From Kangiellaceae bacterium (GTDB lineage: Bacteria; Pseudomonadota; Gammaproteobacteria; Enterobacterales; Kangiellaceae), in assembly GCA_965230525.1 (NCBI GenBank), contig OZ246008.1, positions 903,251-967,250 on the forward strand: a DNA stretch of 64,000 nucleotides, written 5' to 3'. This document shows positions 779 through 48,927 of the stretch, piece after piece. The notes under the pieces are model-generated. The model ran no database searches. It saw nothing but the letters and a program-made list of their open reading frames with translations, and was not told the origin of the DNA. Within the stretch, counting starts at the first letter, position 1, and each line of letters opens with the position of its first letter. A program made the position numbers and the translations under genes.

Positions 779-860
779 GCAAAGAACCTGGCTAGGCTTT
801 ACTTGAGTCTTGGCGCATTTCGATATTGCTATTACTCAAAATATTAAAAAAGGTAGCCTT

Positions 861-1304
861 ATGAAACACTGGTCTTTTCTTGCGGTATTACTCTTGGCAC
901 TTACTGGTTCAGCCAAAGCAAATCAAAGCGATCAACAGCAAATTATCGATAATATCCAGGCGATGTGGAAAGCGGTTGAGACTGACAATCTAAAAGCCTA
1001 TCTCAAATACATTCATCCAGATTACACTGTTTTTGGTGAAGGTGATGCCTACCTGCATAAAGGTAAAGAGATGGAAGCAATCGACTACGCTGACTACATG
1101 GGCCGCTCTGAAGGGGTAAGAACCTTCATGCATCAGCCAGAAGTCACGGTAAGAGGCGATACCGCATGGATTACTTATTATTGGAGCGATGCAGGATATA
1201 TTAGTGGTAAGCGGTTTACCTCCCGAGGTAAGTCGACTCGAATTTTTGTTCGTTCTAACGAGCAATGGCTGTGTATTCACTCACATTTCACCGAACTGCC
1301 CTAA
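861..1304 (+). CDS. Secreted NTF2-fold (SnoaL-like/DUF4440-like) protein
   Basis: ATG at 861 is preceded by AAGG. The N-terminus MKHWSFLAVLLLALTGSAKA looks like a signal peptide. The size and the pattern ...AWITYYWS...QWLCIHSHFT are typical of SnoaL/DUF4440 proteins. The TTG at 810 in the ORF track is less likely to be the start. Confidence 0.6.
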   Translation: MKHWSFLAVLLLALTGSAKANQSDQQQIIDNIQAMWKAVETDNLKAYLKYIHPDYTVFGEGDAYLHKGKEMEAIDYADYMGRSEGVRTFMHQPEVTVRGDTAWITYYWSDAGYISGKRFTSRGKSTRIFVRSNEQWLCIHSHFTELP

Positions 1305-1526: not shown

Positions 1527-3794
1527 ATGATTAAAAATACCCTCAAACAATCTGGGTGGTTCTATTTGTGGGTCGTTTTATCGATTGTTAGTTTATGGAT
1601 CACTGCTAATAACCGTTTTGAATACTTCGAAAGTCACAATTTAAAGCTACTCAGTCAAATGCGGCAAAGTGAAACGCTAGATCCGCATATCATTCGTTTG
1701 GTAATTGAGCAACAGTCTTCTGATGATATTGCATTCTATCAATCGCTGAAAAAGCAATTTCCGGTCGCCACCGTGATTCTTGCTAATGATTTAGCTCAGC
1801 GCACTCAGTTGATGATAAACCATCAAGTTGATTTATCTGATCGTGTGATAGCGTTATCCAAAAATACAATAACTAGCGACCCACTGACACAAGCCGATCT
1901 TGTTAGTCAATTTTTACCGACTGCAAATTCGTCACTCAGTTGGTCTACTTTGGCAAACTTAGAACTCGCAGTGCAATCCGTTCCATCGCTAAACTCAACC
2001 AGCGCTGTTTTTCGAAAGGACGATAAAATTTATCCTGGTTTATTGGTTGCGGCGTTAATTAAGTACCACAACGGCAGTGCTAAACTTTCACAAAACCTCA
2101 CCCACTTAACGCTGCAATTCGATTCGCAACGAACACAATTGTCTCAGTTAAATTTAGGACTCACCGGCAGGTTAATTAGTTTTGAAAAAAATGCGCCTTT
2201 ATTTGGTATCGAGCAATTGCAAGCAGCGATTGACGCTAAGTTTGACGGTCTTTTAATTGTTGATGATCTTTCAAGCTCTGTTGGAAAAAATCTATACAAT
2301 GCATTGCAGGGAATCCAAGCAAATGACTATTTAGTTGACAACCTATTTTGTTACTTGCTTATGTTTTTGGCTTGGGTTGTGATGAGCTTGATTATCTTTA
2401 AGTTTAATGTTCTTACCGTGGCTAGAAAAATCTTGCTAGTTTTTGCTTCAATAATTTCATTGTTGTTAATACAAATAGTGCTAAGTAAGTTTTCTATTTG
2501 GTTACCAATGACTAGTATTCTATTGTTTTCGATTTGTTCGATCCCTTTAATTTTTGGCGTTAACAAAGAAATGCAACAGAAGCAAAATATACACTCAAAT
2601 ATTAATAGTGCTGTGATCGAATCGGCGCTCTATCTGTTAAGAAATCAAAAAGCAAAAACATTATTAGATTTATTATCGAATTGTATTCCGACCAAAGCGC
2701 TCATCGATGTTTTGGTCGAGACTGCTGTGGAAGCAGAAACGCAACGCAACACCGCAGTCGCCTGCCAGCTTTATGAGTGGATTCTAACTCACGACAAAAA
2801 TCATTCTATTAGTAAACAGCGGTTGGCAGAAATTAACGCTGCCGATGAGCCCGCTGAATTAGACCAAACATTAGTGATCGAAAATGGCCAACAGTCCGTT
2901 GCTAAACCGACCAATACTAATGGCATTTTAGCCATCAAAAATTTTGGGCGATACCAAGTAGAAGGAATCATCGGGAAAGGCGCTATGGGGATGGTTTTTC
3001 AAGGTGTGGATCCCAAAATCAATCGGCATGTTGCGATTAAAACTTTACAGCTTAATGATGAACTAGATGATGAATCACTAAATGAAAGAAAGCAGCGGTT
3101 TTTTAGAGAAGCAGAAACTGCGGGTAATCTAAGTCATGCCAATATTGTTACTATCTACGATGTCGGCGAGCAGAAACACCCAAACTCAAACCAATCGCTG
3201 GGCTACATCGCAATGGATTTACTCACTGGCGCGCCGCTTTCAGAGTTTATTAAGGCGGATAAACTCCTTCCACCCCCGCTAGTCTATCAATTGATGATTC
3301 AAATGACTGACGCACTTGATTATGCGCATCGACAAAAAGTGATTCATCGAGATATTAAGCCTGCTAATATTATATTCGATGATGATTTACAACGAGGTAC
3401 CTTGACTGATTTTGGTATCGCTTATATGTCAGATCACAGTAAGACCAAAACCGGAACCATCATGGGTAGTCCCTATTACATGTCGCCCGAACAGGTTATG
3501 GGGCAAACCGTAGATGGACGATCTGATATTTTTAGCCTAGGTGTTACCTTCTATCAGTTGCTAAGTGGCCATCTTCCATTTAATGGAGAATCGATAGCCA
3601 CGGTCGCTTTTCACATTACCAAAACTAAGCACGAGTCAGTTCGAAACATGAACAAAAAACTCTATGCAAGTTCAACTAGAATTACTAATAAAGCGATGCA
3701 AAAAGATCCGGTTAAACGATACCAATCGATGCAAGAATTTCGTCAAGCATTAGTGAATGCACTTAAGAGGGACTACAAAAAGTCACCGCTATAA
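1527..3794 (+). CDS. Membrane Ser/Thr protein kinase (Hanks type) with N-terminal CHASE2-like sensor topology
   Basis: The C-terminal kinase domain carries GKGAMGMVFQG (P-loop), VAIK, HRDIKPANI, DFGIA and SPYYMSPE. The N-terminus has one TM helix, about 250 aa of predicted periplasmic sequence, then three TM helices (aa ~275-345). This is the CHASE2 layout. Confidence 0.9.
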   Translation: MIKNTLKQSGWFYLWVVLSIVSLWITANNRFEYFESHNLKLLSQMRQSETLDPHIIRLVIEQQSSDDIAFYQSLKKQFPVATVILANDLAQRTQLMINHQVDLSDRVIALSKNTITSDPLTQADLVSQFLPTANSSLSWSTLANLELAVQSVPSLNSTSAVFRKDDKIYPGLLVAALIKYHNGSAKLSQNLTHLTLQFDSQRTQLSQLNLGLTGRLISFEKNAPLFGIEQLQAAIDAKFDGLLIVDDLSSSVGKNLYNALQGIQANDYLVDNLFCYLLMFLAWVVMSLIIFKFNVLTVARKILLVFASIISLLLIQIVLSKFSIWLPMTSILLFSICSIPLIFGVNKEMQQKQNIHSNINSAVIESALYLLRNQKAKTLLDLLSNCIPTKALIDVLVETAVEAETQRNTAVACQLYEWILTHDKNHSISKQRLAEINAADEPAELDQTLVIENGQQSVAKPTNTNGILAIKNFGRYQVEGIIGKGAMGMVFQGVDPKINRHVAIKTLQLNDELDDESLNERKQRFFREAETAGNLSHANIVTIYDVGEQKHPNSNQSLGYIAMDLLTGAPLSEFIKADKLLPPPLVYQLMIQMTDALDYAHRQKVIHRDIKPANIIFDDDLQRGTLTDFGIAYMSDHSKTKTGTIMGSPYYMSPEQVMGQTVDGRSDIFSLGVTFYQLLSGHLPFNGESIATVAFHITKTKHESVRNMNKKLYASSTRITNKAMQKDPVKRYQSMQEFRQALVNALKRDYKKSPL

Positions 3795-4543
3795 TGAAAA
3801 CTCAAATATTATCAATCACTGATCGAGGTGCCTTCCGTCCTAATAATGAGGACACTGTCAAGCATGGACAAGCTTTTGATAGCAAGCTGGTTTGGCTAGT
3901 GATTGCTGATGGTATGGGGGGTCATTTGGCGGGAGAGGTTGCCAGTAAAACGCTGGTTGATGAAATCGAAAAATCCATTCAAGCAATTAGTAATCCCGAT
4001 GAGGTTGATTGGCTGTGTTGGTTAGAAATTGAAATTAATCGAGCGAATAATAAAATCTTATCTGCCTCGCAAAAAAATATTGAACAACAAGGAATGGGGA
4101 CTACCGGCGTTGTTGTGATCTTGTATGCAGGAACTTGTTACCTTGGATGGGTAGGTGATTCTCGTTGTTATCATTATCAAGCGAATCAGAAAAACCTCAA
4201 TCAACTAACGGTAGACCATACCATGGTGCAAGCGCTATTAGACAAAGGTGCGATCAGCCAAAAAGAAGCTGATAATTCAAATAACAAAAACATGTTATCG
4301 AAAGCCATTGGTATTAGAAAAGGCGTAGATGTCGATGTTAAATCGTTACCACTTCACTGTTCCGATAGCTTGTTATTATCAACCGATGGATTACATGATA
4401 GTCTTAGTCAGCAAGAGTTGGTCGATTTTATTGAGCGTCTCGCCAAGGGTGATGATGTTAGTAAAAAGATGGTCACCAAAGCCATCGAAAATGGCAGCAA
4501 AGACAACATCACCTTTATTTGCCTAACTTTGCTAGATGAATAA
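3794..4543 (+). CDS. PP2C-family Ser/Thr phosphatase
   Basis: Contains ADGMGGHLAGEVAS, GDSRCY and STDGL...GSKDNIT motifs. Its start overlaps the kinase stop (TAATG, 1-nt overlap). Confidence 0.9.
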   Translation: MKTQILSITDRGAFRPNNEDTVKHGQAFDSKLVWLVIADGMGGHLAGEVASKTLVDEIEKSIQAISNPDEVDWLCWLEIEINRANNKILSASQKNIEQQGMGTTGVVVILYAGTCYLGWVGDSRCYHYQANQKNLNQLTVDHTMVQALLDKGAISQKEADNSNNKNMLSKAIGIRKGVDVDVKSLPLHCSDSLLLSTDGLHDSLSQQELVDFIERLAKGDDVSKKMVTKAIENGSKDNITFICLTLLDE

Positions 4544-17530: not shown

Positions 17531-18004
17531 CTATTCGAATAAGTCATCCGAATCCTCAACTGGATAAAGGCTGTCGGCATCATCGTCGTAATTAAACGCA
17601 CCCAATAAAGTTAAGTATTCGTCTGCATCAACCCCAGAAAGCTTTGCGCTGTATTCGTAATCAAACAACAAGACTATCCAAGTAATTTCGCTAATCTTTT
17701 TTTGTTTTGCTTTGCTGAGTAACGGCGCAATATAAGAGCTGGAGAAAGAGCATTGCCCTGCCGCTTTTTCAATCGCAACGGTGGCATCCATTGAACCGTT
17801 GGTTTCCATATCTTCAGGTCGAAAATATCGCATTTTAAAATTATCTGACCACCGATTGCGCGCGCGAGTATTATTTTTACTATAACTTTCTTCAAAATAT
17901 TCATCCGGGATCTCAGCATAGGGTACGCAAGAAACCCAAACAGATACCTTATTCTTTTTTGCGAAAAGGAGACCCTTGTCGGACGCTTTAACGACCTTTT
18001 TCAT
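17531..18004 (-). CDS. Imm22-like (polymorphic-toxin immunity 22 family) protein, isolated
   Basis: ATG at 18004 (MKKVVKAS...). Contains VSVWVSCVPYAEIPDEYFEESY ... ITWIVLLFDYEYSAKLSG ... LLGAFNYDDD and an acidic tail. This resembles my recollection of Imm22 family signatures. The longer track ORF (to 18148) is unlikely. Confidence 0.45.
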   Translation of the reverse strand: MKKVVKASDKGLLFAKKNKVSVWVSCVPYAEIPDEYFEESYSKNNTRARNRWSDNFKMRYFRPEDMETNGSMDATVAIEKAAGQCSFSSSYIAPLLSKAKQKKISEITWIVLLFDYEYSAKLSGVDADEYLTLLGAFNYDDDADSLYPVEDSDDLFE

Positions 18005-18243
18005 GCACTGTTGACTCCTGTAATAGGTCTGATTTAGTGATTTTATCGCTGACTTAAGGCAAGCAACTTGCAAACCTTGCCCGCGCAAACCACAGACACT
18101 CATCCGCAGTTTGTCTGAATGACATAGTAAGTGAACTGAAAATTCCACTTTCTACGACTCGAAATTAATGCGAAGTATGTTACTCTTTTGTACACAAAAA
18201 CCAATAAAATTAAGTGATCATACAAAAATAAATAATAAGGGGA

Positions 18244-28332: not shown

Positions 28333-28791
28333 TTAGTGGTCGTAGCTTACTACCCGAGTAATCGTCCATTGTTGGTCATGCAATTTCCAAATATGTACAA
28401 ATTTAAAAATGCCACAGTCCTTTTTTCCATTAGCTAGGTGGCAGAATTGATGACGTCCTTCCTGAATTGCGCCGTACTTATTGATTGGAAAAATTGCAGT
28501 AAACTCAGGTAACAGGGTTCTTGTTAATCCTAGTTTGGCTTTGCAGTTGTTTTCACTTGATGTCATGGTTTGAGAATGGTCAGTTAGACCACTCTTGTCA
28601 TGATAAAACTCCAAATCTTGGTCTAATATGTCACTCATTATGCCTAGGTCACAGGTGTTAAAGGCGTCAAACAGTCGTTTATCCATTGCCAAGATTTCAT
28701 TTTCCAAATCGTTTAAGGGCTTATCGGTGGCGCTTGCGCCAAGCGATATCGCGGCTAAGAGAGTGAATAAAGGCTTTTTTAGGTAGTCCAT
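28333..28791 (-). CDS. Secreted NTF2-fold (DUF4440-like) protein
   Basis: ATG at 28791. Has the signal peptide MDYLKKPLFTLLAAISLGASA. The size and the C-terminal pattern (WKLHDQQWTITRVVSYDH) suggest an NTF2-like fold. Confidence 0.5.
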   Translation of the reverse strand: MDYLKKPLFTLLAAISLGASATDKPLNDLENEILAMDKRLFDAFNTCDLGIMSDILDQDLEFYHDKSGLTDHSQTMTSSENNCKAKLGLTRTLLPEFTAIFPINKYGAIQEGRHQFCHLANGKKDCGIFKFVHIWKLHDQQWTITRVVSYDH

Positions 28792-29074
28792 TTGGTAACT
28801 CCAGCTAATGACATAAATTACTATGTTGAGCAAGAAATAGACCAAGTTTAGCAATACACAGCTCAAGGATAACTTTGTGTAAGATAGAAATGCCTTAGCG
28901 CTTGGTTGACAGATTGAATTAATTCACTTTTTCAGATAAGTGTTTTGTACAGCTTTCGGTAAATAGTCTAAGATCTAACTTAGTCTTAGGTTAGCTCCTG
29001 CTGAAGTAAGCAAGCGCGAATTTAAAGTTAGTCTGGGCGCGCATCAGATTAGGTTAGATTAAGGAAAATAGAAT

Positions 29075-30097
29075 TTGCTACAAATCAATAATCAAACACC
29101 GTTTAACGCTGAATTACACCCCTATGAAGACCTGCACGGTAGAGATTATGCAATTATCATCATTAAAGGCACCTTCAATCCCTGTGGTGACCATTTAGGA
29201 ATGACCCTTTGTGATGAGCAAGCGCCAATTCAACATGCTGATGAGTATTATGGTGAGCCGGGGCAATCCAGCATTAAATACCCCACAGATCTCGCTTTAG
29301 TTAAAAAATCCACCGATTTGATATTACTCGGGCACGGTTATGCTCCCGGTGGACGGGCCACCAATCAATTCGATGTTAGTTTATCGGCGGGTAATTTTCA
29401 GCATACCGTCAGAGTGTTTGGTAATCGCTTTTGGCAAAAAGAGGGTCTTACTTGGCAGCCTAGTCGGCCAGAAAGCCTACAAAAAATGCCGCTTACCTAT
29501 GAAAACGCCTTTGGAGGAAGTGATCCTCATGCTGATCCACAAGGCAGCGAAGCGTTCGAATATGATCCGTCTAATCCGATTGGCAAAGGTTTTATCCCTA
29601 AAAAAGCAAATCCTATCGAAGGATTGGCTTTGCCTAACCTCGAAAACCCAAATGATTTAATCGTCGATGAAGATAGCCAGCCAAAGCCCTTTGGGTTTGG
29701 AGCGATAGCTAGGGACTGGCAACCTCGGCTTACTTGGGCCGGAAGCTATGATGAAGCCTGGCAATCACAAAGAATGCCACTATTACCTTTGGACTTTGAC
29801 GCTCGTTTTTTCAATGCTGCCCATCCCAACTTATGCATCTCACCTGAACTTGTAGGTGATGAAGTGATGACGATCAAAAATGCTACTGAATCAGGCTTAC
29901 TTTCATTTCAGCTCCCTAATCAACAACTAATCGCCACCGCAAGTATGCGAGGACAACAAGCCGATTTTATAGCGAAACTCGATACGGTTGTCATTGAGCC
30001 CGACGAGAACCGAGTTATGTTGACCTGGAGAGCGGCTATCCCAATCAAACGCAAGTTTCTGTATTTAGACTCTGTCACCATTAAAAGGCGTCACTAA
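29075..30097 (+). CDS. DUF2169-domain protein (T6SS adaptor/chaperone family)
   Basis: Contains NNQTPFNAEL...DYAIIIIKGTF, DEYYGEPGQSSIKYPTDLALVK, MPLTYENAFGG, NPIGKGF, LPNLENP, PFGFGAI..W.PRLTWAGSYDEAWQSQRMPLLPLDFDARFFNAA. This is the conserved DUF2169 pattern. The start is TTG after AAGGA. Confidence 0.85.
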   Translation: MLQINNQTPFNAELHPYEDLHGRDYAIIIIKGTFNPCGDHLGMTLCDEQAPIQHADEYYGEPGQSSIKYPTDLALVKKSTDLILLGHGYAPGGRATNQFDVSLSAGNFQHTVRVFGNRFWQKEGLTWQPSRPESLQKMPLTYENAFGGSDPHADPQGSEAFEYDPSNPIGKGFIPKKANPIEGLALPNLENPNDLIVDEDSQPKPFGFGAIARDWQPRLTWAGSYDEAWQSQRMPLLPLDFDARFFNAAHPNLCISPELVGDEVMTIKNATESGLLSFQLPNQQLIATASMRGQQADFIAKLDTVVIEPDENRVMLTWRAAIPIKRKFLYLDSVTIKRRH

Positions 30098-30098
30098 A

Positions 30099-31187
30099 AT
30101 GACTCATGCTGAGACTGGAACAAATAACTCAATTGTGATTACCGCAATGGGAGCGGTTACGGCTGTGGGTGGCAATGTAGAGCAAAGTACAGCGGCAATC
30201 GCAGCTGGCATTACACCTTTTGTTGAGCACTGCTATTACCAATGTACCCCCGCGGACCCAGAATGGGACGAAGACTTACCCGCCTATGTTGCAGCTGCCC
30301 CGTTTGTTGAGTTTCATGTCGACAACCTAGAACGTTTTAATCAATTGATCATTCCCGCTTTAAAAGAGTTATTCGCACAAAGTCACATTAAAAGACAAGC
30401 GTTGTCTAAAACTGGGCTCTTGGTGGCGCTGCCAGAGGCTGAAAGTGGATTGCAAAAACTAGCACTTGACGATCTGTGGTTAACTGATGTTCGACGTCAC
30501 ATGGGGTTAGTTGGACTAAAAAATGCTCGCACTAATCGCGATGCTCATGTTGGTGTTTTTAGCGCGATAAACCAAGCCATGGAATCTTTAAAAAATGGGC
30601 AATTAGAGCAATGTATAGTGGGTGGCGTGGACAGTTACTTGCTGCAAAGTAGAATGGCCCATTTTGATAAGCTCTGGCGGTTAAAAAGTAGCCGAAATGT
30701 AGACGGGTTCATACCGGGCGAGGCCGCTACAATGTTAATGTTAGAGACCGAGCAGCATGCGCTTGCTCGAGGCGCTGAAATTTTAGCGGTAATTGGAAGT
30801 GTTGGCTTTGGTGTCGAACCTAATCACATTTACTCTGAGCGAGCGAGTAGCGGTAAAGGTTTGACTGACGCAATTCGACAAGCGCTTGCAGCCGATTCAA
30901 GTGATCAAAATTTTGCCATGATCGGCTGTGACCTTAACGGTGAGAGTTATGCAAGCCAAGAACTTGGGTTGATTGGTACACGATTAGGTGATCGGTTTGG
31001 CGCTGATACCGAAATTAGCCATCCCGCAGACAGTTGTGGTGATGTGGGTGCAGCTTCAGGCGGGTTATTGATCATCAATGCAATCGATCGAATTCAGCAA
31101 ACCGACACCAACAATCTATTATTGACCACTGCTAATGATGACGGTCGGCGCGGAGCGCTCATCATCAAAGCTCCTAGAAAGGCTTAA
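30099..31187 (+). CDS. Thiolase-fold, beta-ketoacyl-synthase-like protein lacking the Cys-His-His triad
   Basis: Colinear with KAS I/II: IVITAMGAVTAVGGNVEQSTAAIAAG, DGFIPGEAATMLMLETEQHALARGAEILAVI, DSCGDVGAASGGLL. The catalytic positions read ...RDAHVGVFSA... (no Cys), ...CDLNGES... and ...CGDVGAA... (no His). The ATG is 1 nt after the DUF2169 stop. Confidence 0.7.
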   Translation: MTHAETGTNNSIVITAMGAVTAVGGNVEQSTAAIAAGITPFVEHCYYQCTPADPEWDEDLPAYVAAAPFVEFHVDNLERFNQLIIPALKELFAQSHIKRQALSKTGLLVALPEAESGLQKLALDDLWLTDVRRHMGLVGLKNARTNRDAHVGVFSAINQAMESLKNGQLEQCIVGGVDSYLLQSRMAHFDKLWRLKSSRNVDGFIPGEAATMLMLETEQHALARGAEILAVIGSVGFGVEPNHIYSERASSGKGLTDAIRQALAADSSDQNFAMIGCDLNGESYASQELGLIGTRLGDRFGADTEISHPADSCGDVGAASGGLLIINAIDRIQQTDTNNLLLTTANDDGRRGALIIKAPRKA

Positions 31188-31234
31188 AAGTACTAAAAAA
31201 GCGTTGCGATAAAGTATAATTTAAAGGAAGTAAC

Positions 31235-31705
31235 ATGGCTGCAACTATTAATGTAAATAATCGAACTGTTGTTCATAAATCCAGTGATGGGATTGTCACT
31301 GTTTTCCCTGATGTTTGTAAAACTCCGACTCCTGGAGGGCCGGTTCCTATCCCCTATCCCAATATTGCGATGTCTTCAGATACTGCTAAGGGGAGTAAGT
31401 CGGTCAAAATGGACGGCAACCCAATAATGCTCAAGGGATCCAATTTTAAAACCAGTACCGGCGATGAGCCAGGCTCCTTGAAAGGCGTTGTTAGTAGCAA
31501 AATTAAGGGTAAAGCGGAATTTGTTAATTATTCTTTTGATGTCAAAGTGGAAGGAAAAAACGTTCCGCGTTTAGCCGATATGATGATTCAAAATAAAGGT
31601 GGCGTTGCCAATACTGCCCCTATTCCAGAGGTTCAGCCACCTATTGTTGTGCCTCCGCCACCAAGTCCAGAAGAAAACCAAATAACCAAAATTGAGATTA
31701 TCTAA
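31235..31705 (+). CDS. DUF4150 (PAAR-like) protein with proline-rich C-terminal tail
   Basis: Contains FPDVCKTPTPGGPVPIPYPNIAMSSD..GSKSVKMDGNPIM..GSNFKTSTGDEPGS.KGVVSS...VKVEGKNVPRLADMMIQN, the DUF4150 signature. The tail is PIPEVQPPIVVPPPPSPEE. Confidence 0.85.
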   Translation: MAATINVNNRTVVHKSSDGIVTVFPDVCKTPTPGGPVPIPYPNIAMSSDTAKGSKSVKMDGNPIMLKGSNFKTSTGDEPGSLKGVVSSKIKGKAEFVNYSFDVKVEGKNVPRLADMMIQNKGGVANTAPIPEVQPPIVVPPPPSPEENQITKIEII

Positions 31706-31716
31706 AGGAGTAGAAC

Positions 31717-33207
31717 ATGGCATTGGTGCAATGGGTTAATTTGGACAAGCATAGTGACTATGCGGCTGATTCTGATATTGGAAGTATCGATCGATGTGGC
31801 GCGCTAGAAATAAAAACCGCGTTTGCTTCGGGCAGTGTGCCCCTCTCTTACAAAGTTAAAGTGTCCCCTTCGGGTTCAGATAACGTCACCTACACGACGG
31901 CAGAATTAGGACGCAATAGTAATTTCAAAATGACCAAAGGAGCGGCAGATTTAGGAACCCAATCCGAAGTGGTTATGAGTGATACTGTTAAACTTCCGGC
32001 TGCCGGTGGGAATAAATATAAACTTGAAGCAAAGGATGCGAACGGAAAGGTTGTCTCCAGTCAGGAAATAGAGGCCAAGCGAAAACTTTATTATCAGTTT
32101 ATGCACATGGAGGATTCTAACGGCAAAGTCACGCCCTATGCGCTTACTCAAATGGAAGGTCATTGTGCGAAGTATCATATTGTTTTAAGTAAAGCGGGTA
32201 CGGATAAAAAAATTCCGTTTCGCAAGTGCATCAACTCTGGTCCCGGTGGTAGGTTTACTCATGTTGGTTTTGCCGCGGACGTAAATTCTCAATACGATTT
32301 AACCGCGCCGCAAAAAAAGGTTGGCTGTGTTACGGCACTATCAAATTATATTGCCTCGTTTAAAAGCACAACTAAAACGCTCACTCATTCAATAGGTGGT
32401 CCGGCTAATCCGAAAATATCGATCACACCAAGTGTGGCAGCAGGCGCTGCTACTGCGGCAGGTATACCCGGAAAAATTACCTTAGCCGTTTTATCGGGTT
32501 ACGAGTTTTTATGGTACGGATTGGACGATGATGATGACCTGGCTAAAGTTTGGTTTATTGATGGAGCTGTGAGCTTTACTCCAAATACTTCTAGTTCTTC
32601 ACCTTCTGCTATGGCCGGTCAATCAATTCAAATTAGTCGTTCGGATGTCAGTATAGGTGGAAGCAAAAAACGAACTCATGGCGGTTATCAAGAGATAGAA
32701 GTAACCATCAATCCAGGATCTACTTTAGATAATATGATTTCGCAAACGAGTGGTACGCTAGATTTTGCTTTTGAGTTGAATCGAGTAAAAGGCTTTAGTG
32801 GTGGTTTTAGTTGGGGTGGTGCTGGATTTGCTTTAACGACTTGTTGTACTAAAGCATGGTTTGAAGATAAACAGCCATCTGCTAGTGACGTAATATGGAA
32901 TCACGAAGTAGGACATAGAATGGGTATGGTGGCATTTGGTGATAAGCCCAACGCTACTTACCCTAATCCGAAACTGCCAGATGCGCCGCCGCATTTGTAC
33001 GGTGAGAAACGTGGGGTTAATGATAAGGGGCATCAAGGTCCTCATTGCGAAGAAGGGGCTGTCACTTACAATGCAACCACAAATAGCTGGAGCGGCACGC
33101 CAGGTTGCGTGCTTTTTGGTGCGACCGGTACTTCAGCAGCCAGCTCGCCGCTCGATTATTGTAGCGACTGTACTCCGGTAGTCAGAAAATTAGATCTTTC
33201 TTTCTAA
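31717..33207 (+). CDS. Candidate cargo/effector: 496-aa protein with a single HExxH (HEVGH) motif and Cys-rich C-terminus
   Basis: AGGAG lies 6 nt upstream of the ATG, which is 11 nt after the PAAR-like stop. It contains WNHEVGHRMGM and a C-terminal 90 aa with 5 Cys (..GPHCEEG..PGCVLFG..DYCSDCTP..). I do not recognise the N-terminal ~380 aa. Confidence 0.55.
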   Translation: MALVQWVNLDKHSDYAADSDIGSIDRCGALEIKTAFASGSVPLSYKVKVSPSGSDNVTYTTAELGRNSNFKMTKGAADLGTQSEVVMSDTVKLPAAGGNKYKLEAKDANGKVVSSQEIEAKRKLYYQFMHMEDSNGKVTPYALTQMEGHCAKYHIVLSKAGTDKKIPFRKCINSGPGGRFTHVGFAADVNSQYDLTAPQKKVGCVTALSNYIASFKSTTKTLTHSIGGPANPKISITPSVAAGAATAAGIPGKITLAVLSGYEFLWYGLDDDDDLAKVWFIDGAVSFTPNTSSSSPSAMAGQSIQISRSDVSIGGSKKRTHGGYQEIEVTINPGSTLDNMISQTSGTLDFAFELNRVKGFSGGFSWGGAGFALTTCCTKAWFEDKQPSASDVIWNHEVGHRMGMVAFGDKPNATYPNPKLPDAPPHLYGEKRGVNDKGHQGPHCEEGAVTYNATTNSWSGTPGCVLFGATGTSAASSPLDYCSDCTPVVRKLDLSF

Positions 33208-33867
33208 ATGGAATTTAAGAAACATTTACCGATCATACTTTTAGCTCACTTATGCGTTATATTAATTTCGTGCAAAGCTAATACTTCCAACAAAGGAGAA
33301 AGCCTAATGGCGGACCAACTTTACCAAATACCTAAAGATTGTGATTTTAGTAAAGTGCTAAATGGAGACACCCATTCCAACGAATGTACTCCGATTCTCG
33401 ATAATAAATTCTTTAGCAAGTTTTCGGGAATTTTAATTAATGGCCCGGAGCAAGTGGTTTGGCCTAAAGATGGAAACCCTGAAGACTATCCAGTAGGGCC
33501 GTGGGGAACTTCCGAGGGACCATTCCGATTAATGCTTGCAGGGTTAGTTAGGACAGAATATAAAACCCTTGGTTTAAAGGGTGAGGCTTCGGAAGAGGTC
33601 TTGTTAGTTGCGGTTAATCAAAAAACGGCAAAAAGTTATTCAGGAAAAATGCCAAAGCCTGACGTCGATACTGCACCCGATTTTGATATGGGTATGGAAG
33701 AAATCCCGCTATCAGAAGAAGAGCAGAATAAACTAATTACCAGTTACTTTAATTTTGATCTCGTGCAAGATTTAGGTTTGCCGATTGCTAATGCCAGCTA
33801 CAATGTTTATGCAACACTCGGAGAAATGAAATCCAATTCAATCATTATTCACACCAAAGTGGAATGA
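33208..33867 (+). CDS. Island family A, copy 1: predicted lipoprotein (candidate immunity protein)
   Basis: The ATG directly abuts the upstream stop (TAAATG). It has the signal peptide plus lipobox MEFKKHLPIILLAHLCVILISC. It shares a conserved core with 34351..34911 and 35356..35949 (IP..CDFS......(E/Q)C(T/S)P, GILIN, GP(F/L)R(L/I)M(L/V)AG, (V/I)NQ(K/E)T, (Y/V)YA(T/V)LGE/A.KSN). Confidence 0.65.
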   Translation: MEFKKHLPIILLAHLCVILISCKANTSNKGESLMADQLYQIPKDCDFSKVLNGDTHSNECTPILDNKFFSKFSGILINGPEQVVWPKDGNPEDYPVGPWGTSEGPFRLMLAGLVRTEYKTLGLKGEASEEVLLVAVNQKTAKSYSGKMPKPDVDTAPDFDMGMEEIPLSEEEQNKLITSYFNFDLVQDLGLPIANASYNVYATLGEMKSNSIIIHTKVE

Positions 33868-33925
33868 TTGAAATTAGAGTTCTTAAATTTTTCGCTCAAT
33901 TATATGCTAAAAGGAACTTCGAGCC

Positions 33926-34300
33926 TTGAAAGAACATCAACAAAGTTCAAACAAAATCATTATCGAAGCTATATCGGCGATTAAAGCTGACCCCAATAAA
34001 ATAGTGATTCATGGAAAGTTTGATATCGAATATGAAGCTAGCGGTCTGTTGACTCGCGGCTCTGAAATCTTAAATCACATCATTCTCGTGGTGACTCGCT
34101 CAGGAAATTATCAATCTGTCACACCCTTTCAAGATGTTATTGCTTTTGAAGATGATGTCCAAGAAAATGATTCGGGCTGTAGTGGTGTTTTCAATATTGA
34201 TCTATTCAAAAAAATTCTCTTCGATGGGCCGGGTGACTATTACATCCTCTGTTCCATTGGTTCTGTTACTTCAAATATCTTGCACGTTAAACACAATTGA
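33926..34300 (+). CDS. Island family B, copy 1 (small all-beta-looking protein, no signal peptide)
   Basis: TTG start; the frame opens only at 33911. Clear paralog of 34939..35298 (HIILVVT, PF.D.I.FEDD.Q..(D/G).(S/G)CSG.F, DYYI(L/M)CSIG..TS.I). Confidence 0.55.
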   Translation: MKEHQQSSNKIIIEAISAIKADPNKIVIHGKFDIEYEASGLLTRGSEILNHIILVVTRSGNYQSVTPFQDVIAFEDDVQENDSGCSGVFNIDLFKKILFDGPGDYYILCSIGSVTSNILHVKHN

Positions 34301-34350
34301 TATTCAAGCAAGAATTTCGATTTATGCTTTACTAAGAGTAGTCGAAAAAT

Positions 34351-34911
34351 ATGCATAGTCGCCTTTATGAAATTCCAGAACAATGTGATTTCTCTACAGT
34401 TTGGAATAATACTGCTAACGCTAACGAATGCTCTCCAAAACTTACACCAGAATTCTTTAACCCTTTTCAAGGAATCTTAATTAATACTCCAATCACAGTG
34501 GAGCTAGATGGTAACTTAGACCTCAAAGACTTCATAGTAACACCTGCGGGTCATCGAGAAGGACCACTAAGAATCATGTTGGCAGGTTCACTTCAAGTAC
34601 CAGTCGGCACATTAAATAAAGACTGTGGATTGAATGAAAAAGTGTTGATAGTTGCTATCAATCAAAAAACTGCAGAAACGTTTAGTGGTTATATGAGTCT
34701 TTTCGGATTTAAAGTCGACCCCATTGAAATTCCGTTACCTGAAGGCGAAACAGAGGAAGATATCGCTAAAGGTGATGTTCGAGAGTTATTTAATGTTGAT
34801 TTAATAGAAAACCTAAAACTCCCAATTATGACAGCGGATTATACTGTTTACGCAGTTCTAGGCGAGTATAAGTCGAATGTGAGAGAGGTCAAAGTGCGAG
34901 TAAAGAAGTAG
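34351..34911 (+). CDS. Island family A, copy 2 (no signal peptide)
   Basis: ATG at 34351, with an in-frame stop 12 nt upstream. It is colinear with A1 from residue ~34 onward and is the most divergent of the three copies. Confidence 0.6.
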   Translation: MHSRLYEIPEQCDFSTVWNNTANANECSPKLTPEFFNPFQGILINTPITVELDGNLDLKDFIVTPAGHREGPLRIMLAGSLQVPVGTLNKDCGLNEKVLIVAINQKTAETFSGYMSLFGFKVDPIEIPLPEGETEEDIAKGDVRELFNVDLIENLKLPIMTADYTVYAVLGEYKSNVREVKVRVKK

Positions 34912-34938
34912 CCTCTTTAGTTACTGAGTCTAATAGTT

Positions 34939-35298
34939 ATGATTAAGAATAATTACTTTATAGCAATTGAAAATCCTTCAAAGACAAACAGTAAAGAAAC
35001 TTTGATGATTCAAGGACAATTCAGAGTTCCTTATCATCAATCTGGTATTACTGTGCAAGGTGCTGATATGCTAAAACACATAATATTGGTTGTCACAATG
35101 GGTGGTGCTCGTGCAGTCGTTCGCCCATTTAAGGACTATGTGATTTTTGAAGATGACATTCAAGACGATGGACAAAGTTGTAGTGGCTATTTTAAATTCA
35201 ATGCGTTTGAAAAGATATCGTTTACCGAGGGTGATCACTATTACATAATGTGTTCGATAGGAACCTTCACTTCTGATATTGTTAAAGTCTCAGTTTAA
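34939..35298 (+). CDS. Island family B, copy 2
   Basis: ATG start. Roughly half of its positions are identical to B1 by eye. Confidence 0.6.
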   Translation: MIKNNYFIAIENPSKTNSKETLMIQGQFRVPYHQSGITVQGADMLKHIILVVTMGGARAVVRPFKDYVIFEDDIQDDGQSCSGYFKFNAFEKISFTEGDHYYIMCSIGTFTSDIVKVSV

Positions 35299-35355
35299 TA
35301 CCTTGTTGCTTTTACAATCAAAACTCTACAAATAAAAATATTTTTATTCTGCGCT

Positions 35356-35949
35356 TTGTTTGCGTCAAAGGCATCAGTAGAGAAGCCGATGAAAAATGAA
35401 CATTATAAAATTCCTGAAAACTGTGATTTTAGTAAAATTTACAATGCGAATTCAGAAGAAAATCAATGCTCACCAAAACTAAACGACAAGTTCTTTAGTG
35501 AATTTTCTGGAATTCTAATTAATGCACCCAAAATAGTAGAATGGCCAAAGAATGTTCATTTAAAGGATTATTATCCAAGGCCATCAGGCACATCTTATGG
35601 GCCGCTAAGATTGATGGTCGCAGGTTTGATCCGGACGCAATATAAAACTCTTGGTCTAAATGGTGATACTAGCGAAGCCGTAGCATTGGTGGCTATTAAC
35701 CAAGAGACCAAAGCTATACTCTCAGCAAGAATGCCTAGACCAGATTTTGATTTACCACCAGATTTTGAAAACGAAAGTCCTGAAAGAACTCGAAATGAAG
35801 CCGAATTAAACGCACTAATTACAAATCACTTTAATTTTGATTTAGTTCATGACTTAGGATTACCGATAGCGGAAGCTAATTATCAGGTTTATGCTACTCT
35901 TGGAGCAATGAAGTCAAATGTGGTGGAAGTTAAAACTGTTATCAAATAA
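35356..35949 (+). CDS. Island family A, copy 3 (start uncertain: TTG 35356 or ATG 35389)
   Basis: Closest paralog of A1 (e.g. FFS.FSGILIN.P..V.WPK, RTxYKTLGL.G..SE.V.LVA(V/I)NQ, FNFDLV.DLGLPIA.A.Y.VYATLG.MKSN). Confidence 0.6.
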   Translation: MFASKASVEKPMKNEHYKIPENCDFSKIYNANSEENQCSPKLNDKFFSEFSGILINAPKIVEWPKNVHLKDYYPRPSGTSYGPLRLMVAGLIRTQYKTLGLNGDTSEAVALVAINQETKAILSARMPRPDFDLPPDFENESPERTRNEAELNALITNHFNFDLVHDLGLPIAEANYQVYATLGAMKSNVVEVKTVIK

Positions 35950-35967
35950 CCTTTATTTGCGTCTTCT

Positions 35968-36486
35968 TTAGAACTTCTTTAACCTTATTTTCGAATCTTT
36001 CACATTGATACTATTCGAAGTGAACTCAAGATACTTTGCAGTTAATTCGATATTTCCAAGCACATCTTCCAGAGCATCTTTAAAATAAACATCATCTACA
36101 GCTATGCTAAATTTCTCGGTTACTATTTGATCACATGGCTTTTGAGAGTATTCATCATATACTTGATTACCATCCCAAGAAATAGACAAATGATTATCAA
36201 TTGATTCATACTCTTGTCCACTTTCAAGATTCTTAATAGTAAACATAATGGTTTCTGGAAATTGAGACCAAATGGCATATTGACTGCCGCAATTAACAAA
36301 AACTGAAAAACTTCCTTCAATCCTCAGTTTATTCTTATCATTTGCTGCATCATGGCTTAATTGAATTCTTAGTCCTTGAGTTTGGTTCATTCTTTCCTTT
36401 CCATTTACTTCACTAGTGTATGAGTATATTAGTGTCAGTAGAGCTAACGGTAGAACCAACGACGTTTTGTCTCTAAAATGATTCAT
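35968..36486 (-). CDS. Secreted small protein, possible divergent family-B relative (convergent with the array)
   Basis: ATG at 36486 gives the signal peptide MNHFRDKTSLVLPLALLTLIYSYT. There is weak colinearity with B1/B2 (LRIEGSFSV ~ IVIHGKFDI; GNIELTAKYLEFTSNSINVK ~ GDYYILCSIGSVTSNILHVK). Confidence 0.45.
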   Translation of the reverse strand: MNHFRDKTSLVLPLALLTLIYSYTSEVNGKERMNQTQGLRIQLSHDAANDKNKLRIEGSFSVFVNCGSQYAIWSQFPETIMFTIKNLESGQEYESIDNHLSISWDGNQVYDEYSQKPCDQIVTEKFSIAVDDVYFKDALEDVLGNIELTAKYLEFTSNSINVKDSKIRLKKF

Positions 36487-36594
36487 TGTTTCTGAATCCT
36501 CAAAACTCATTTATTAACCCATTAAGCGCTATGGCGACTTGATTTTCAATTATATGTCACAATTAAAGTTATCTCGACTTTAACGGGAACTTCT

Positions 36595-48459: not shown

Positions 48460-48927
48460 CTAACTCGTGCTACATGGATACTTTTGTTGCAAAACTTCTT
48501 GCATCGCAGTTAAGGCACTTTGATCTTGGTATCTGGAAGCATCAATATTAGTAGCCACAGTTTTGATCACATCTGCAATGGTGACTGGATGGCCCAAACA
48601 GAACTGGCCGTTTGACTCATCACCTAAAGTTAAGTGAGGTACGCGAGCACCAATGCGGTTTTGGATCGCTCTTTCCTTAAATGATGATAACGGGCGATCG
48701 GCCTGTTGTTGGCTTTTGGCAATGTCTGCGTCCGCTGCGATAGCGCCATCAATAAATCCCTTTATGTAACGAGCACACTCCATACTTTCAGTGATTTGTG
48801 GCTGACTTTCGTAGTTTGCACAAAGTTGGCTCAATTGATCAGACGATAAAGGCTGAACCGCGTCGGCACGCATTGCGAGCAATGCCAGTGGAACTAATAT
48901 TAGAAGTGAAAAATATTTATTGAACAT
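48460..48927 (-). CDS. Secreted Rap1a/Tai-like (T6SS amidase-effector immunity family) protein, isolated
   Basis: Has a signal peptide. Contains LSQLC...ECARYIKGFIDGA ... GQFCLGHPVTIADVIKTV ... ALTAMQEVLQQKYPC. The spacing of 4 Cys and the C..Y..G..DG / FC..P...vt / ..(F/Y)PC pattern match my recollection of the Rap1a/Tai family. Confidence 0.45.
   Translation of the reverse strand: MFNKYFSLLILVPLALLAMRADAVQPLSSDQLSQLCANYESQPQITESMECARYIKGFIDGAIAADADIAKSQQQADRPLSSFKERAIQNRIGARVPHLTLGDESNGQFCLGHPVTIADVIKTVATNIDASRYQDQSALTAMQEVLQQKYPCSTS

Follow-up and report, generated by a model that had tools for sequence, protein, structure and literature searches.

DUF2169 proteins (TvpA) are known as chaperones of DUF4150 'PIPY' domains (PMC11883445, PMC13373197), and in the DUF2169 loci of 'synteny type A' they are accompanied by a 'thiolase-like' gene, which is PRK06147 (PMC11883445). 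The PRK06147 proteins were proposed as type VI secretion system (T6SS) adaptors in 2020 (PMC7714669) and, with Pseudomonas aeruginosa PA0098 as the type, have been named TvpD, a predicted PAAR-domain co-chaperone of the Class II Tvp systems (PMC13373197). In the published models, TvpA and TvpD contact the PAAR protein and barely touch VgrG or TvpC, and Class I and II systems go with PAAR proteins that bear effector domains (PMC13373197). Here, we analysed a ten-gene island in the genome of a Kangiellaceae bacterium, located at positions 29075-36510 of a 64-kb stretch of contig OZ246008.1 (the whole stretch is called the window below). As judged by domain content and gene order, its first three genes are the known TvpA-TvpD-PIPY set of synteny type A/Class II Tvp (PMC11883445); a separate gene for a 496-aa protein follows, and then six small genes, called A1, B1, A2, B2 and A3 on the same strand and B3m on the opposite one. 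We consider it likely that the island is an auxiliary T6SS effector module, namely the PAAR-side half of a Class II Tvp/type A cluster, detached from the half that comprises vgrG, tvpC (DUF6484) and a HEAT-repeat gene.

The P. aeruginosa vgrG1b cluster (PA0095-PA0101, with Tse7) holds tvpA, tvpD and the DUF4150/PIPY gene in the same order as the island (PMC13373197, PMC11883445), and the related full clusters found here also hold DUF6484 (TvpC) and a HEAT/armadillo protein. The island differs from it in having vgrG, tvpC and HEAT outside the locus, and in its PIPY protein, which is toxin-less and ends in a conserved tail of ~35 residues, with the cargo encoded by the separate 496-aa gene; the cargo is an HExxH protein, whereas that of the vgrG1b cluster is a Tox-GHH2 toxin. 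Since its PIPY protein carries no effector domain, the island is an exception to the Class I/II pattern. In T6SS1 of Vibrio parahaemolyticus (VP1398, a DUF2169 protein; VP1399; VP1415, a PIPY effector), the PIPY tip likewise needs its cognate DUF2169 chaperone (PMC11883445), and a DUF6484 protein and a TvpD-like gene are found nearby. Those genes, however, lie in the T6SS1 region and PIPY is part of the toxin, whereas the island is detached and its toxin separate.

Chaperone and tip genes and the whereabouts of VgrG

The first four genes of the island are co-directional and tightly coupled. Genes 1 and 2 are joined by TAA-a-ATG (30095-30101), AGGAG (31706-31710) stands 6 nt before the ATG at 31717 of the 496-aa gene, and the stop codon of the latter forms a junction, TAAATG (33205-33210), with the start of A1; all three junctions had been read to the exact base in the initial annotation, which was made from the letters alone. 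Its DUF2169 and DUF4150 assignments also held in profile searches. The TvpA protein matched Pfam PF09937 at E=9.9e-93 over the complete model (positions 1-294 of 294), and the PIPY protein matched PF13665 (Tox-PAAR-like/DUF4150) at E=1.6e-42 over residues 20-122 and carries VPIPYPN (within ...GGPVPIPYPN...), that is, the P(I/V)P(Y/F) motif. The families that the annotation could not name have indeed no curated match in the case of the 496-aa protein, A and B (see below), but the 362-aa product of gene 2, which it took for a new accessory protein, belongs to the known TvpD family (PMC7714669, PMC13373197). This protein matched NCBIfam PRK06147 at E=3.3e-67 over residues 10-359 with 227 bits, below the equivalog cutoff of 342 bits, and is assigned as a relative of the PRK06147 family, not as an equivalog. 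TvpD orthologues hold the same position in full clusters, and in the window the gene comes directly after that of DUF2169. The protein also matched Pfam ketoacyl-synt (E=7.6e-10); because His150 replaces the nucleophile Cys and an Asn replaces the second catalytic His in the alignment to FabF, it is classified as a pseudo-enzyme with a catalytically dead ketosynthase fold.

A Pfam scan of all open reading frames (ORFs) with 150 aa or more detected no vgrG, hcp or tss gene in the window. The description of the island as VgrG-less, given in the initial annotation, is therefore accurate for the 64-kb locus and fails beyond it, as shown below. The borders are, as described there, ordinary genes: patatin and DUF4440 (NTF2-like) on one side and Peptidase_M90/MtfA on the other (Pfam). 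The same slot (AsnC-OsmC-DAHP synthase-patatin-DUF4440, island, MtfA-129aa) holds an island in OZ246006, the chromosome (5,049,388 bp, ~5.05 Mb) of a Kangiellaceae metagenome-assembled genome (MAG). As the flank proteins of the two are 85-97% identical, the genomes are probably congeneric. Between the two islands, identity is 75% for TvpA, 81% for TvpD and 97% for the PIPY protein.

VgrG was searched for with a profile built from the VgrGs that accompany the cassette in other loci. A match on the congener's contig (P0142) lies in a cluster of genes for ShlB, hcp, a two-component pair, vgrG, DUF6484, DUF2169, a PIPY protein of the short type, HEAT, a TvpD-like protein of 351 aa, an AHH-type toxin and Imm11; with its position at 4.12 Mb, this cluster is 2.1 Mb away from the congener's island at 2.03 Mb. 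Another VgrG, P0271, falls into the 90% identity cluster of P0142 (93% identical to it) and comes from a contig of 4,830,707 bp. P0210 and P0231, which match exactly residues 34-219 of A1 and residues 12-197 of A3 of the window, likewise come from a 4,830,707-bp contig. Because of this shared contig size, a cognate-type VgrG, P0271, is very probably encoded in the genome from which the window comes.

Comparable splits were found in other lineages. In Alteromonadaceae Bs31, hcp-vgrG-DUF6484-DUF2169-HEAT adjoins TPR genes and ClpV, and TvpD-PIPY-effector-A-B is found on a separate contig. TvpA/TvpD-PIPY-effector-A-B modules that lack a vgrG nearby were seen again in unrelated genomes (L004, L009, L014, L018). 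The 2020 survey counted 339 VgrG homologues within ±10 genes of 407 PRK06147 loci (PMC7714669), therefore some of those loci have no local vgrG. Conversely, hcp and/or vgrG come directly upstream of the block in at least 14 related loci: TvpA-TvpD-PIPY-effector-A-B directly follows hcp-vgrG-DUF6484-HEAT in L002, L005, L006, L008 and L013, and the block stands after vgrG in L010, L015-L017, L019-L021, L052 and L053 (Planctomycetota, Myxococcota, Smithella, Nitrospiraceae and further gammaproteobacterial genomes). The type A members that are not in the window are vgrG, DUF6484 (TvpC) and the armadillo/HEAT gene, and in both the congener and Bs31, DUF6484 and HEAT are found at the vgrG cluster. 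The lack of a local VgrG is thus ordinary. Relative to the paralogues in the congener's main cluster, the island proteins are only 38% (TvpA), 25% (TvpD) and 59% (PIPY) identical; this divergence, together with the published contact models, fits a TvpA and TvpD that would be dedicated to one PIPY protein, with VgrG, TvpC and HEAT shared. The reading of the island as an auxiliary T6SS-type cargo module, already suggested in the initial annotation, is supported by the TvpA-TvpD-PIPY set and with the hcp/vgrG genes beside the related loci.

As a separate observation on these clusters, genes for a very large exoprotein with a two-partner secretion domain and for a ShlB/POTRA transporter lie immediately upstream of hcp in a Gilvimarinus locus (L002, 1-2574) and in the Kangiellaceae MAG (L055, 1-6209). 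Two contact-dependent systems, two-partner secretion and T6SS, are hence linked in two families.

The 496-aa effector family and the PIPY tail

The 496-aa protein has no Pfam, NCBIfam or PDB sequence match, and its relatives form 89 clusters at 90% identity, none of them functionally named. An exhaustive profile search retrieved 816 representative clusters (50% identity) at E<=1e-3, of which 232 at E<=1e-30, spanning Pseudomonadota, Myxococcota, Planctomycetota, Verrucomicrobiota, Bacteroidota and others, and a genome scan yielded 52 loci in Gammaproteobacteria, Myxococcota, Planctomycetota, Desulfobacterota, Eisenbacteria, Verrucomicrobiota, Bacteroidota and others. Some relatives are part of spike proteins: P0387 and P0395 are C-terminal fusions to a complete VgrG, locus L029 encodes a single VgrG-effector ORF of 1,226 aa, and P0347 is fused to the PAAR-like DUF4280. 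The co-occurrence of homologues with PAAR/VgrG genes, a check proposed in the initial annotation, is thus seen both in the 14 or more loci described above and in the fusions. Such linkage, a recurrent vgrG/PAAR neighbourhood in unrelated genomes together with fusions, is that of a T6SS effector, and we conclude from it and from the motif described below that the 496-aa protein is a putative T6SS spike-borne effector of an uncurated, zincin-like family. The 'new metallo-effector' of the initial annotation stands in this sense.

In an alignment of 30 sequences (30-84% identity), H396, E397, G399, H400, G403 and M404 are invariant and define HExGH(R/K)xGM; Y428, H439, H443, C444, C464, C482 and C485 are invariant as well (four Cys, with one CxxC). 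The AlphaFold2 model (pLDDT 89.6, pTM 0.85) predicts three domains, with a beta-sandwich at the N-terminus, a middle domain, and a domain of sheet plus helix that bears HExxH, the motif being placed in helix 387-401 behind strands 346-377. A Foldseek search of the full model against the PDB gave no match at E<=1e-3, and its top matches were generic immunoglobulin (Ig)-like or pilin beta-sandwiches with TM ~0.1. Scanning the 30 homologues singly against Pfam gave only E ~0.01 to Reprolysin_3/5 and Peptidase_M57, and in the PDB profile search the best matches were marginal (E=0.003-0.005 over ~35 residues) and fell on metzincin HExxHxxG helices. At position +6 after H400 the effector has Ala, which departs from the metzincin pattern of the third ligand, and the invariant H439 and H443 are candidate ligands. 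A swappable C-terminal toxin domain was considered, given that tblastn covered only residues ~350-495 in Bacteroidota and Paraglaciecola, and was rejected: the ORFs there are full-length (484-511 aa) and keep the N-terminal QFVNL...RNSKFKF signature. In one metagenomic relative (P0348, 711 aa), an extension at the N-terminus includes a peptidoglycan-binding LysM domain (30.2 bits versus a cutoff of 20.9), which is a weak hint that the family may act at the cell wall.

Another HExxH toxin delivered by a T6SS is reportedly the C-terminal metallopeptidase of P. aeruginosa VgrG2b, said to have its target in the periplasm and a periplasmic immunity protein. The two resemble each other in the motif, and some members of the 496-aa family are likewise fused to VgrG. 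Nevertheless, no relationship was detected, as VgrG2b is absent from the PDB profile matches and from the top 50 Foldseek matches, and the 496-aa toxin is a separate cargo of three domains.

The PIPY protein of the island consists of the domain and a tail of 34 aa, with no toxin fused to it, the effector being encoded by a separate ORF in another reading frame. Such a tail is present in 27 of the 27 non-redundant loci where a PIPY gene directly precedes a close member of the effector family (PIPY proteins of 155-169 aa), with the consensus NTPPxPEVQPP-(acidic linker)-ΦxxIEΦ. Where a PIPY gene has no close member of the effector family beside it (L027, L031, the second PIPY gene in L015, and L055), its product has 126-127 aa and ends in NKKN(I/A)MG; this short, tailless set includes the PIPY proteins of the Colwellia echini cluster, from which the effector has been lost, and of the congener's main cluster. 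Because it tracks the presence of a close effector neighbour, the tail is the best candidate for cargo docking. A literature search for cargo loading by PIPY proteins, or for the 496-aa effector family, returned nothing specific.

Ig-like A, B and B3m proteins and the second start of A

The initial annotation counted six small genes in two paralogous families. The count and the paralogy within A (A1, A2 and A3 are 42-56% identical) and within B (46% between B1 and B2) were confirmed, but the two families proved to be homologous to each other, and the sixth gene, B3m, is nearer to A. The hhalign comparison of the A and B profiles gave 97% probability (E=1.2e-10), and B3m scored 89% (E=2e-6) against the A profile and 33% against the B profile. 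By these profile comparisons, A, B and B3m are one Ig-like superfamily in three forms. B3m as a plain B paralogue was rejected (BLAST E of 0.035-0.06, no hmmsearch match, and A favoured over B by profile-profile comparison). A and B had no matches in Pfam or NCBIfam. The AlphaFold2 model of the A core (pLDDT 90.5) has an Ig V-set-like beta-sandwich fold, for which Foldseek returned generic Ig V-set matches only and no known immunity family.

In most of the 52 loci, across phyla, an A homologue comes after the effector gene, and most A homologues have a leader with an L-x-x-C lipobox. B follows A in ~25 related loci; B homologues never have a leader, and B1 has no signal peptide. Between the congeners, the effector is 48% and A 44% identical, versus 85-97% for the flanks and 97% for PIPY. 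In Colwellia echini A3 (L027, 300-11300), a complete hcp-vgrG-DUF6484-DUF2169-PIPY(short)-HEAT-TvpD cluster is followed, ~2.6 kb further on, by only the last 62 effector codons (79% identical) and then by intact A and B genes, which looks like the replacement of an effector that left its putative immunity genes behind. Given that A follows the effector across phyla, that the effector/A pair diverges fast and that A survives the loss of the effector, A1 is likely the cognate immunity protein of the 496-aa effector. To this extent, the small genes do behave like the immunity or accessory cassette that had been suggested for them.

The A gene has a second start. Of the 27 homologues that bear a leader, 24 have a Met directly preceding the A domain, in a linker that is otherwise not conserved, and in the non-Met cases the codon is GTG (L030, L032, L049, L051) or TTG (L002), each with AAGGAG ~7 nt upstream. 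The Shine-Dalgarno (SD) duplex energy at this start averages -5.35 kcal/mol versus -2.2 kcal/mol at control positions (p=1.3e-7, uncorrected for the relatedness of the homologues; the indices used for L030 and L049 are one codon off, with AAGGAG still inside the upstream windows). Public gene calls give the short form for about half of the homologues, the window's genome included (P0210). In L013, stop codons sever the leader and the ORF of the A domain is intact, and the A proteins of Myxococcota and Planctomycetota have no leader at all. A conserved internal start codon with its own SD sequence, downstream of a lipoprotein leader, implies that one A gene may yield both a periplasmic lipoprotein and a cytosolic isoform. 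In Enterobacter cloacae, a cytosolic form of Tli is required to deploy Tle (bioRxiv 10.1101/2023.03.28.534661), and the gene structure of A, known here from sequence, parallels that of Tli in its predicted dual isoforms. The proteins differ, as E. cloacae pairs an ankyrin-repeat Tli with a phospholipase, Tle, whereas here Ig-like proteins go with a zincin-like toxin; moreover, the internal start of A is kept across phyla as ATG, GTG or TTG with SD, and the island adds a leaderless paralogue, B, and one with a signal peptide, B3m.

B3m has an orthologue in the congener (L001, 12425-12952, minus strand) at the same place and on the same strand, 58% identical and with an AMA-Q cleavage site, and B3m-related genes are found downstream of the cassette in L005 and L002. 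It was also observed that B3m and its L001 orthologue have a Met after the signal peptide, right before the conserved core (...NGKERM-NQTQGLRIQL and ...AMAQM-SEFQGLKIRL). The two-start logic of A may extend to B3m.

A2, B2 and A3 are missing from the congener's syntenic island. Upstream of A2 there is neither room for a leader nor a trace of one, and the in-frame stretch upstream of A3, ...KIFLFCALFASK, contains no start codon, so that the ATG at 35389 is the probable true start of A3. No effector remnant was found between the three genes. The distal part of the island (33208-36510), said in the initial annotation to look AT-rich, has a computed GC content of 0.361, versus 0.449 for 29075-33207 and 0.413 for the whole window, and is the lowest-GC stretch of 3.3 kb in the window, ~3 SD (standard deviations) under the mean. 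As they are absent from the congener, leaderless and located in this low-GC stretch, A2-B2-A3 are read as probable extra or relic copies of the cassette. A promoter and terminator scan of 28.7-36.8 kb was uninformative, with counts equal to the shuffled expectation.

Orphan immunity arrays are known downstream of T6SS effector loci, in the auxiliary clusters of Vibrio cholerae and in Bacteroidales. A2-B2-A3 resemble them in being divergent, in lacking a cognate effector and in their deviant GC, as does the C. echini locus, with its 3' remnant of the effector followed by A and B. They differ in that the extra A copies have no export leaders and no effector remnant stands between them. Independently, a tandem repeat of the cassette was observed behind a single TvpA-TvpD pair in a gammaproteobacterial MAG (OB6; L006, 9500-15800), where tblastn identified two PIPY genes, three effector matches, three A and two B; this suggests that PIPY-effector-A-B may be the duplicating unit there, with the chaperones shared.

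Table 1. Island features and their positions in the window
Feature	Position	Strand	Evidence
Island ORFs 1-4, same strand	29075-30097, 30099-31187, 31235-31705, 31717-33207	+	ORF list
tvpA, 340 aa (TTG start), DUF2169-type PIPY chaperone	29075..30097	+	PF09937
tvpD, PRK06147-type pseudo-ketosynthase, 362 aa, predicted PIPY co-chaperone	30099..31187	+	NCBIfam
PIPY (DUF4150, PAAR-like) spike-tip protein, 156 aa, no fused toxin	31235..31705	+	PF13665
PIPY C-terminal tail, residues ~123-156, NTAPIPEVQPP...EENQITKIEII	31601..31705	+	candidate cargo-docking element
Putative cargo effector, 496 aa, uncurated HExxH (zincin-like) family	31717..33207	+	motif, linkage, fusions
HEVGH motif, H396-E397-x-G399-H400, putative zinc/catalytic site	32902..32916	+	alignment
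A1, lipoprotein-type Ig-like protein, 219 aa, lipobox LISC, likely cognate immunity protein	33208..33867	+	context, leader
A1 internal start: AAGGAG (33293-33298), 8 nt, ATG 33307, giving a 186-aa leaderless isoform	33293..33309	+	sequence
B1, leaderless short paralogue of the A core, 124 aa, TTG start	33926..34300	+	profile-profile
A2, extra leaderless A copy, 186 aa	34351..34911	+	42% identity to A1
B2, extra B copy, 119 aa	34939..35298	+	46% identity to B1
A3, extra A copy, start-less leader vestige	35356..35949	+	56% identity to A1
B3m, signal-peptide-bearing distant superfamily member, 180 aa, convergent with A3	35968..36510	-	profile-profile

Proposed mechanism, rival explanations and meaning

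In the mechanism that we propose, TvpA (DUF2169) and TvpD, with its dead ketosynthase fold, would chaperone the small PIPY tip protein, which would cap a trimer of VgrG whose gene lies at another chromosomal site; HEAT and TvpC would probably be provided in trans too. The 496-aa protein would travel as separate cargo, probably held by the family-specific C-terminal tail of PIPY, and would be fired into neighbouring bacteria, where it may work as a zinc metallopeptidase whose site of action would most likely be the cell envelope. The A1 lipoprotein would be the periplasmic immunity protein, the leaderless A isoform from the internal start and the leaderless B might act in the producer's cytoplasm to silence, fold or load the effector, for which E. 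cloacae Tli is the demonstrated precedent, and A2-B2-A3 would be extra copies of the cassette, either horizontally acquired or relic. A more far-reaching proposal, which we regard as tentative and rather doubtful, is that of a gene-encoded system of neutralisation and activation in two compartments, conserved across phyla, in which the same Ig-like domain would occur as a periplasmic lipoprotein (A-long), a cytosolic isoform from the internal start (A-short), a paralogue confined to the cytosol (B) and a secreted paralogue (B3m), and the cytosolic forms would fold and silence a metallopeptidase of a new fold class and hand it to the PIPY tail.

Several observations weigh against the main mechanism. 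T6SS core genes of the window's genome were not seen, the link to P0271 consists of the shared value of 4,830,707 bp only, and for TvpC and HEAT, a supply in trans is an extrapolation from the congener and Bs31. No solved zincin matched the effector model significantly in fold, and the 'peptidase' label derives from the motif and marginal profile matches. The conserved N-terminus of the effector is also found in relatives that are fused to VgrG or have no PIPY, and therefore the PIPY tail cannot be the sole loading route. Lacking leaders, A2 and A3 could not give periplasmic immunity, which makes it doubtful that they protect against a periplasmic toxin; the sole A copy of Myxococcota and Planctomycetota is leaderless, so neutralisation may be cytoplasmic, or its compartment may vary by lineage.

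The alternative that bears on the island as a whole is that of a stranded, non-functional remnant of a type A cluster that is without vgrG, tvpC and HEAT, with the small genes as decaying pieces of the cassette. Transposon mutagenesis in Proteus mirabilis suggests that vgrG, tvpC and HEAT are all needed in type A clusters, which together with the lost leaders of A2 and A3, the deviant GC of the distal part, and identities of TvpA and TvpD to the congener (75% and 81%) below those of the flanks (85-97%) would agree with decay. We nonetheless regard such a remnant as quite unlikely, since the ten ORFs are all intact and tightly coupled, with good SD sequences, the congener keeps the same arrangement at the same locus with a nearly unchanged PIPY protein (97%), vgrG-less modules occur in four unrelated loci, the missing half is at the T6SS cluster in Bs31, and the same assembly very probably holds a cognate-type VgrG. 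Still more improbable, to a degree that we give it hardly any weight, is that the PAAR-like module serves a different contractile machine, such as an extracellular contractile injection system (eCIS), an option raised in the initial annotation. The lack of T6SS structural genes in the 64 kb would allow it, and PAAR-type tips are reported on eCIS too (PMC8651086). Yet hcp and vgrG stand immediately upstream in related loci, ClpV adjoins the split cluster in Bs31, effector relatives are fused to VgrG or to DUF4280, a strict co-occurrence of DUF2169/DUF4150 with VgrG has been reported, and eCIS genes were seen in none of the loci.

The role of the small proteins might also be another one, with A and/or B acting as adaptors, chaperones or co-secreted partners instead of immunity proteins, and with a 496-aa protein that may hit eukaryotes or be an extracellular protease. 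B is leaderless in every case, in many A genes a leader is lacking or an internal start is present, the Ig-like fold, as a generic binding module, matched no known immunity family, the cytosolic Tli of E. cloacae is an activator and not an immunity protein, and a wealth of extracellular proteases is reported for Kangiella species (PMC6000758). On the other hand, an adaptor would need no lipoprotein leader, and most A homologues have one across phyla; A and B outlive the effector in C. echini; the divergent, effectorless A2, B2 and A3, along with the fast divergence of the effector/A pair, are the typical pattern of effector and immunity genes; and one relative bears a LysM domain, which is of a peptidoglycan-binding type. 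An adaptor role limited to the cytosolic forms would agree with the mechanism proposed above. We hold these other roles to be unlikely, and retain the auxiliary T6SS effector module, with A1 as its probable immunity protein, as the best explanation.

Some further genes of the window were noted in passing. DUF4440/SnoaL-like paralogues occur twice (810-1304, plus strand; 28333-28866, minus strand), and the latter, which borders the island, is 62% identical to its congener counterpart, with neighbours at 85-97%. A solitary 205-aa gene (17531-18148, minus strand) matches PF14112, 'Immunity protein 22', at E=9e-31; its neighbours are a thiolase and an AMP-binding enzyme, with no toxin gene evident alongside, and it may be an orphan immunity gene of a polymorphic toxin. 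Another solitary gene (155 aa; 48460-48927, minus strand), flanked by a Na+/H+ antiporter and a LysR regulator, matches PF18602, the Rap1a T6SS immunity family (E=4e-10; 40.4 bits versus a cutoff of 27.7), and would be the second orphan immunity gene of the window, this one of T6SS type. Finally, at 1527-4543 (plus strand), the gene of a 755-aa protein with a C-terminal Ser/Thr kinase domain immediately precedes that of a PP2C phosphatase, with the phosphatase start overlapping the stop of the kinase gene at 3794; some T6SSs are regulated by kinase/phosphatase pairs.

While the framework of the island is known, new leads come from its effector family, from the tail of the PIPY protein, from the union of A, B and B3m in one superfamily and from the conserved dual start. 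The spike-borne toxin family is widespread (816 clusters) and has no name, curated model or solved relative, and a toxin-less PIPY protein with a family-specific tail is a possible route for separate cargo in Class II Tvp systems. The natural splits of type A clusters reveal which genes travel with the PAAR-effector pair (TvpA, TvpD) and which may be shareable (VgrG, TvpC, HEAT). If the two-compartment proposal were true, TvpA and TvpD would be the PAAR-specific half of Class II Tvp, with VgrG, TvpC and HEAT as its shareable half, and the 'paradoxical' mechanism of Tli would be generalised; the conserved second start in Ig-like, immunity-type genes points to a need for cytosolic immunity proteins in effector deployment that is perhaps more general.

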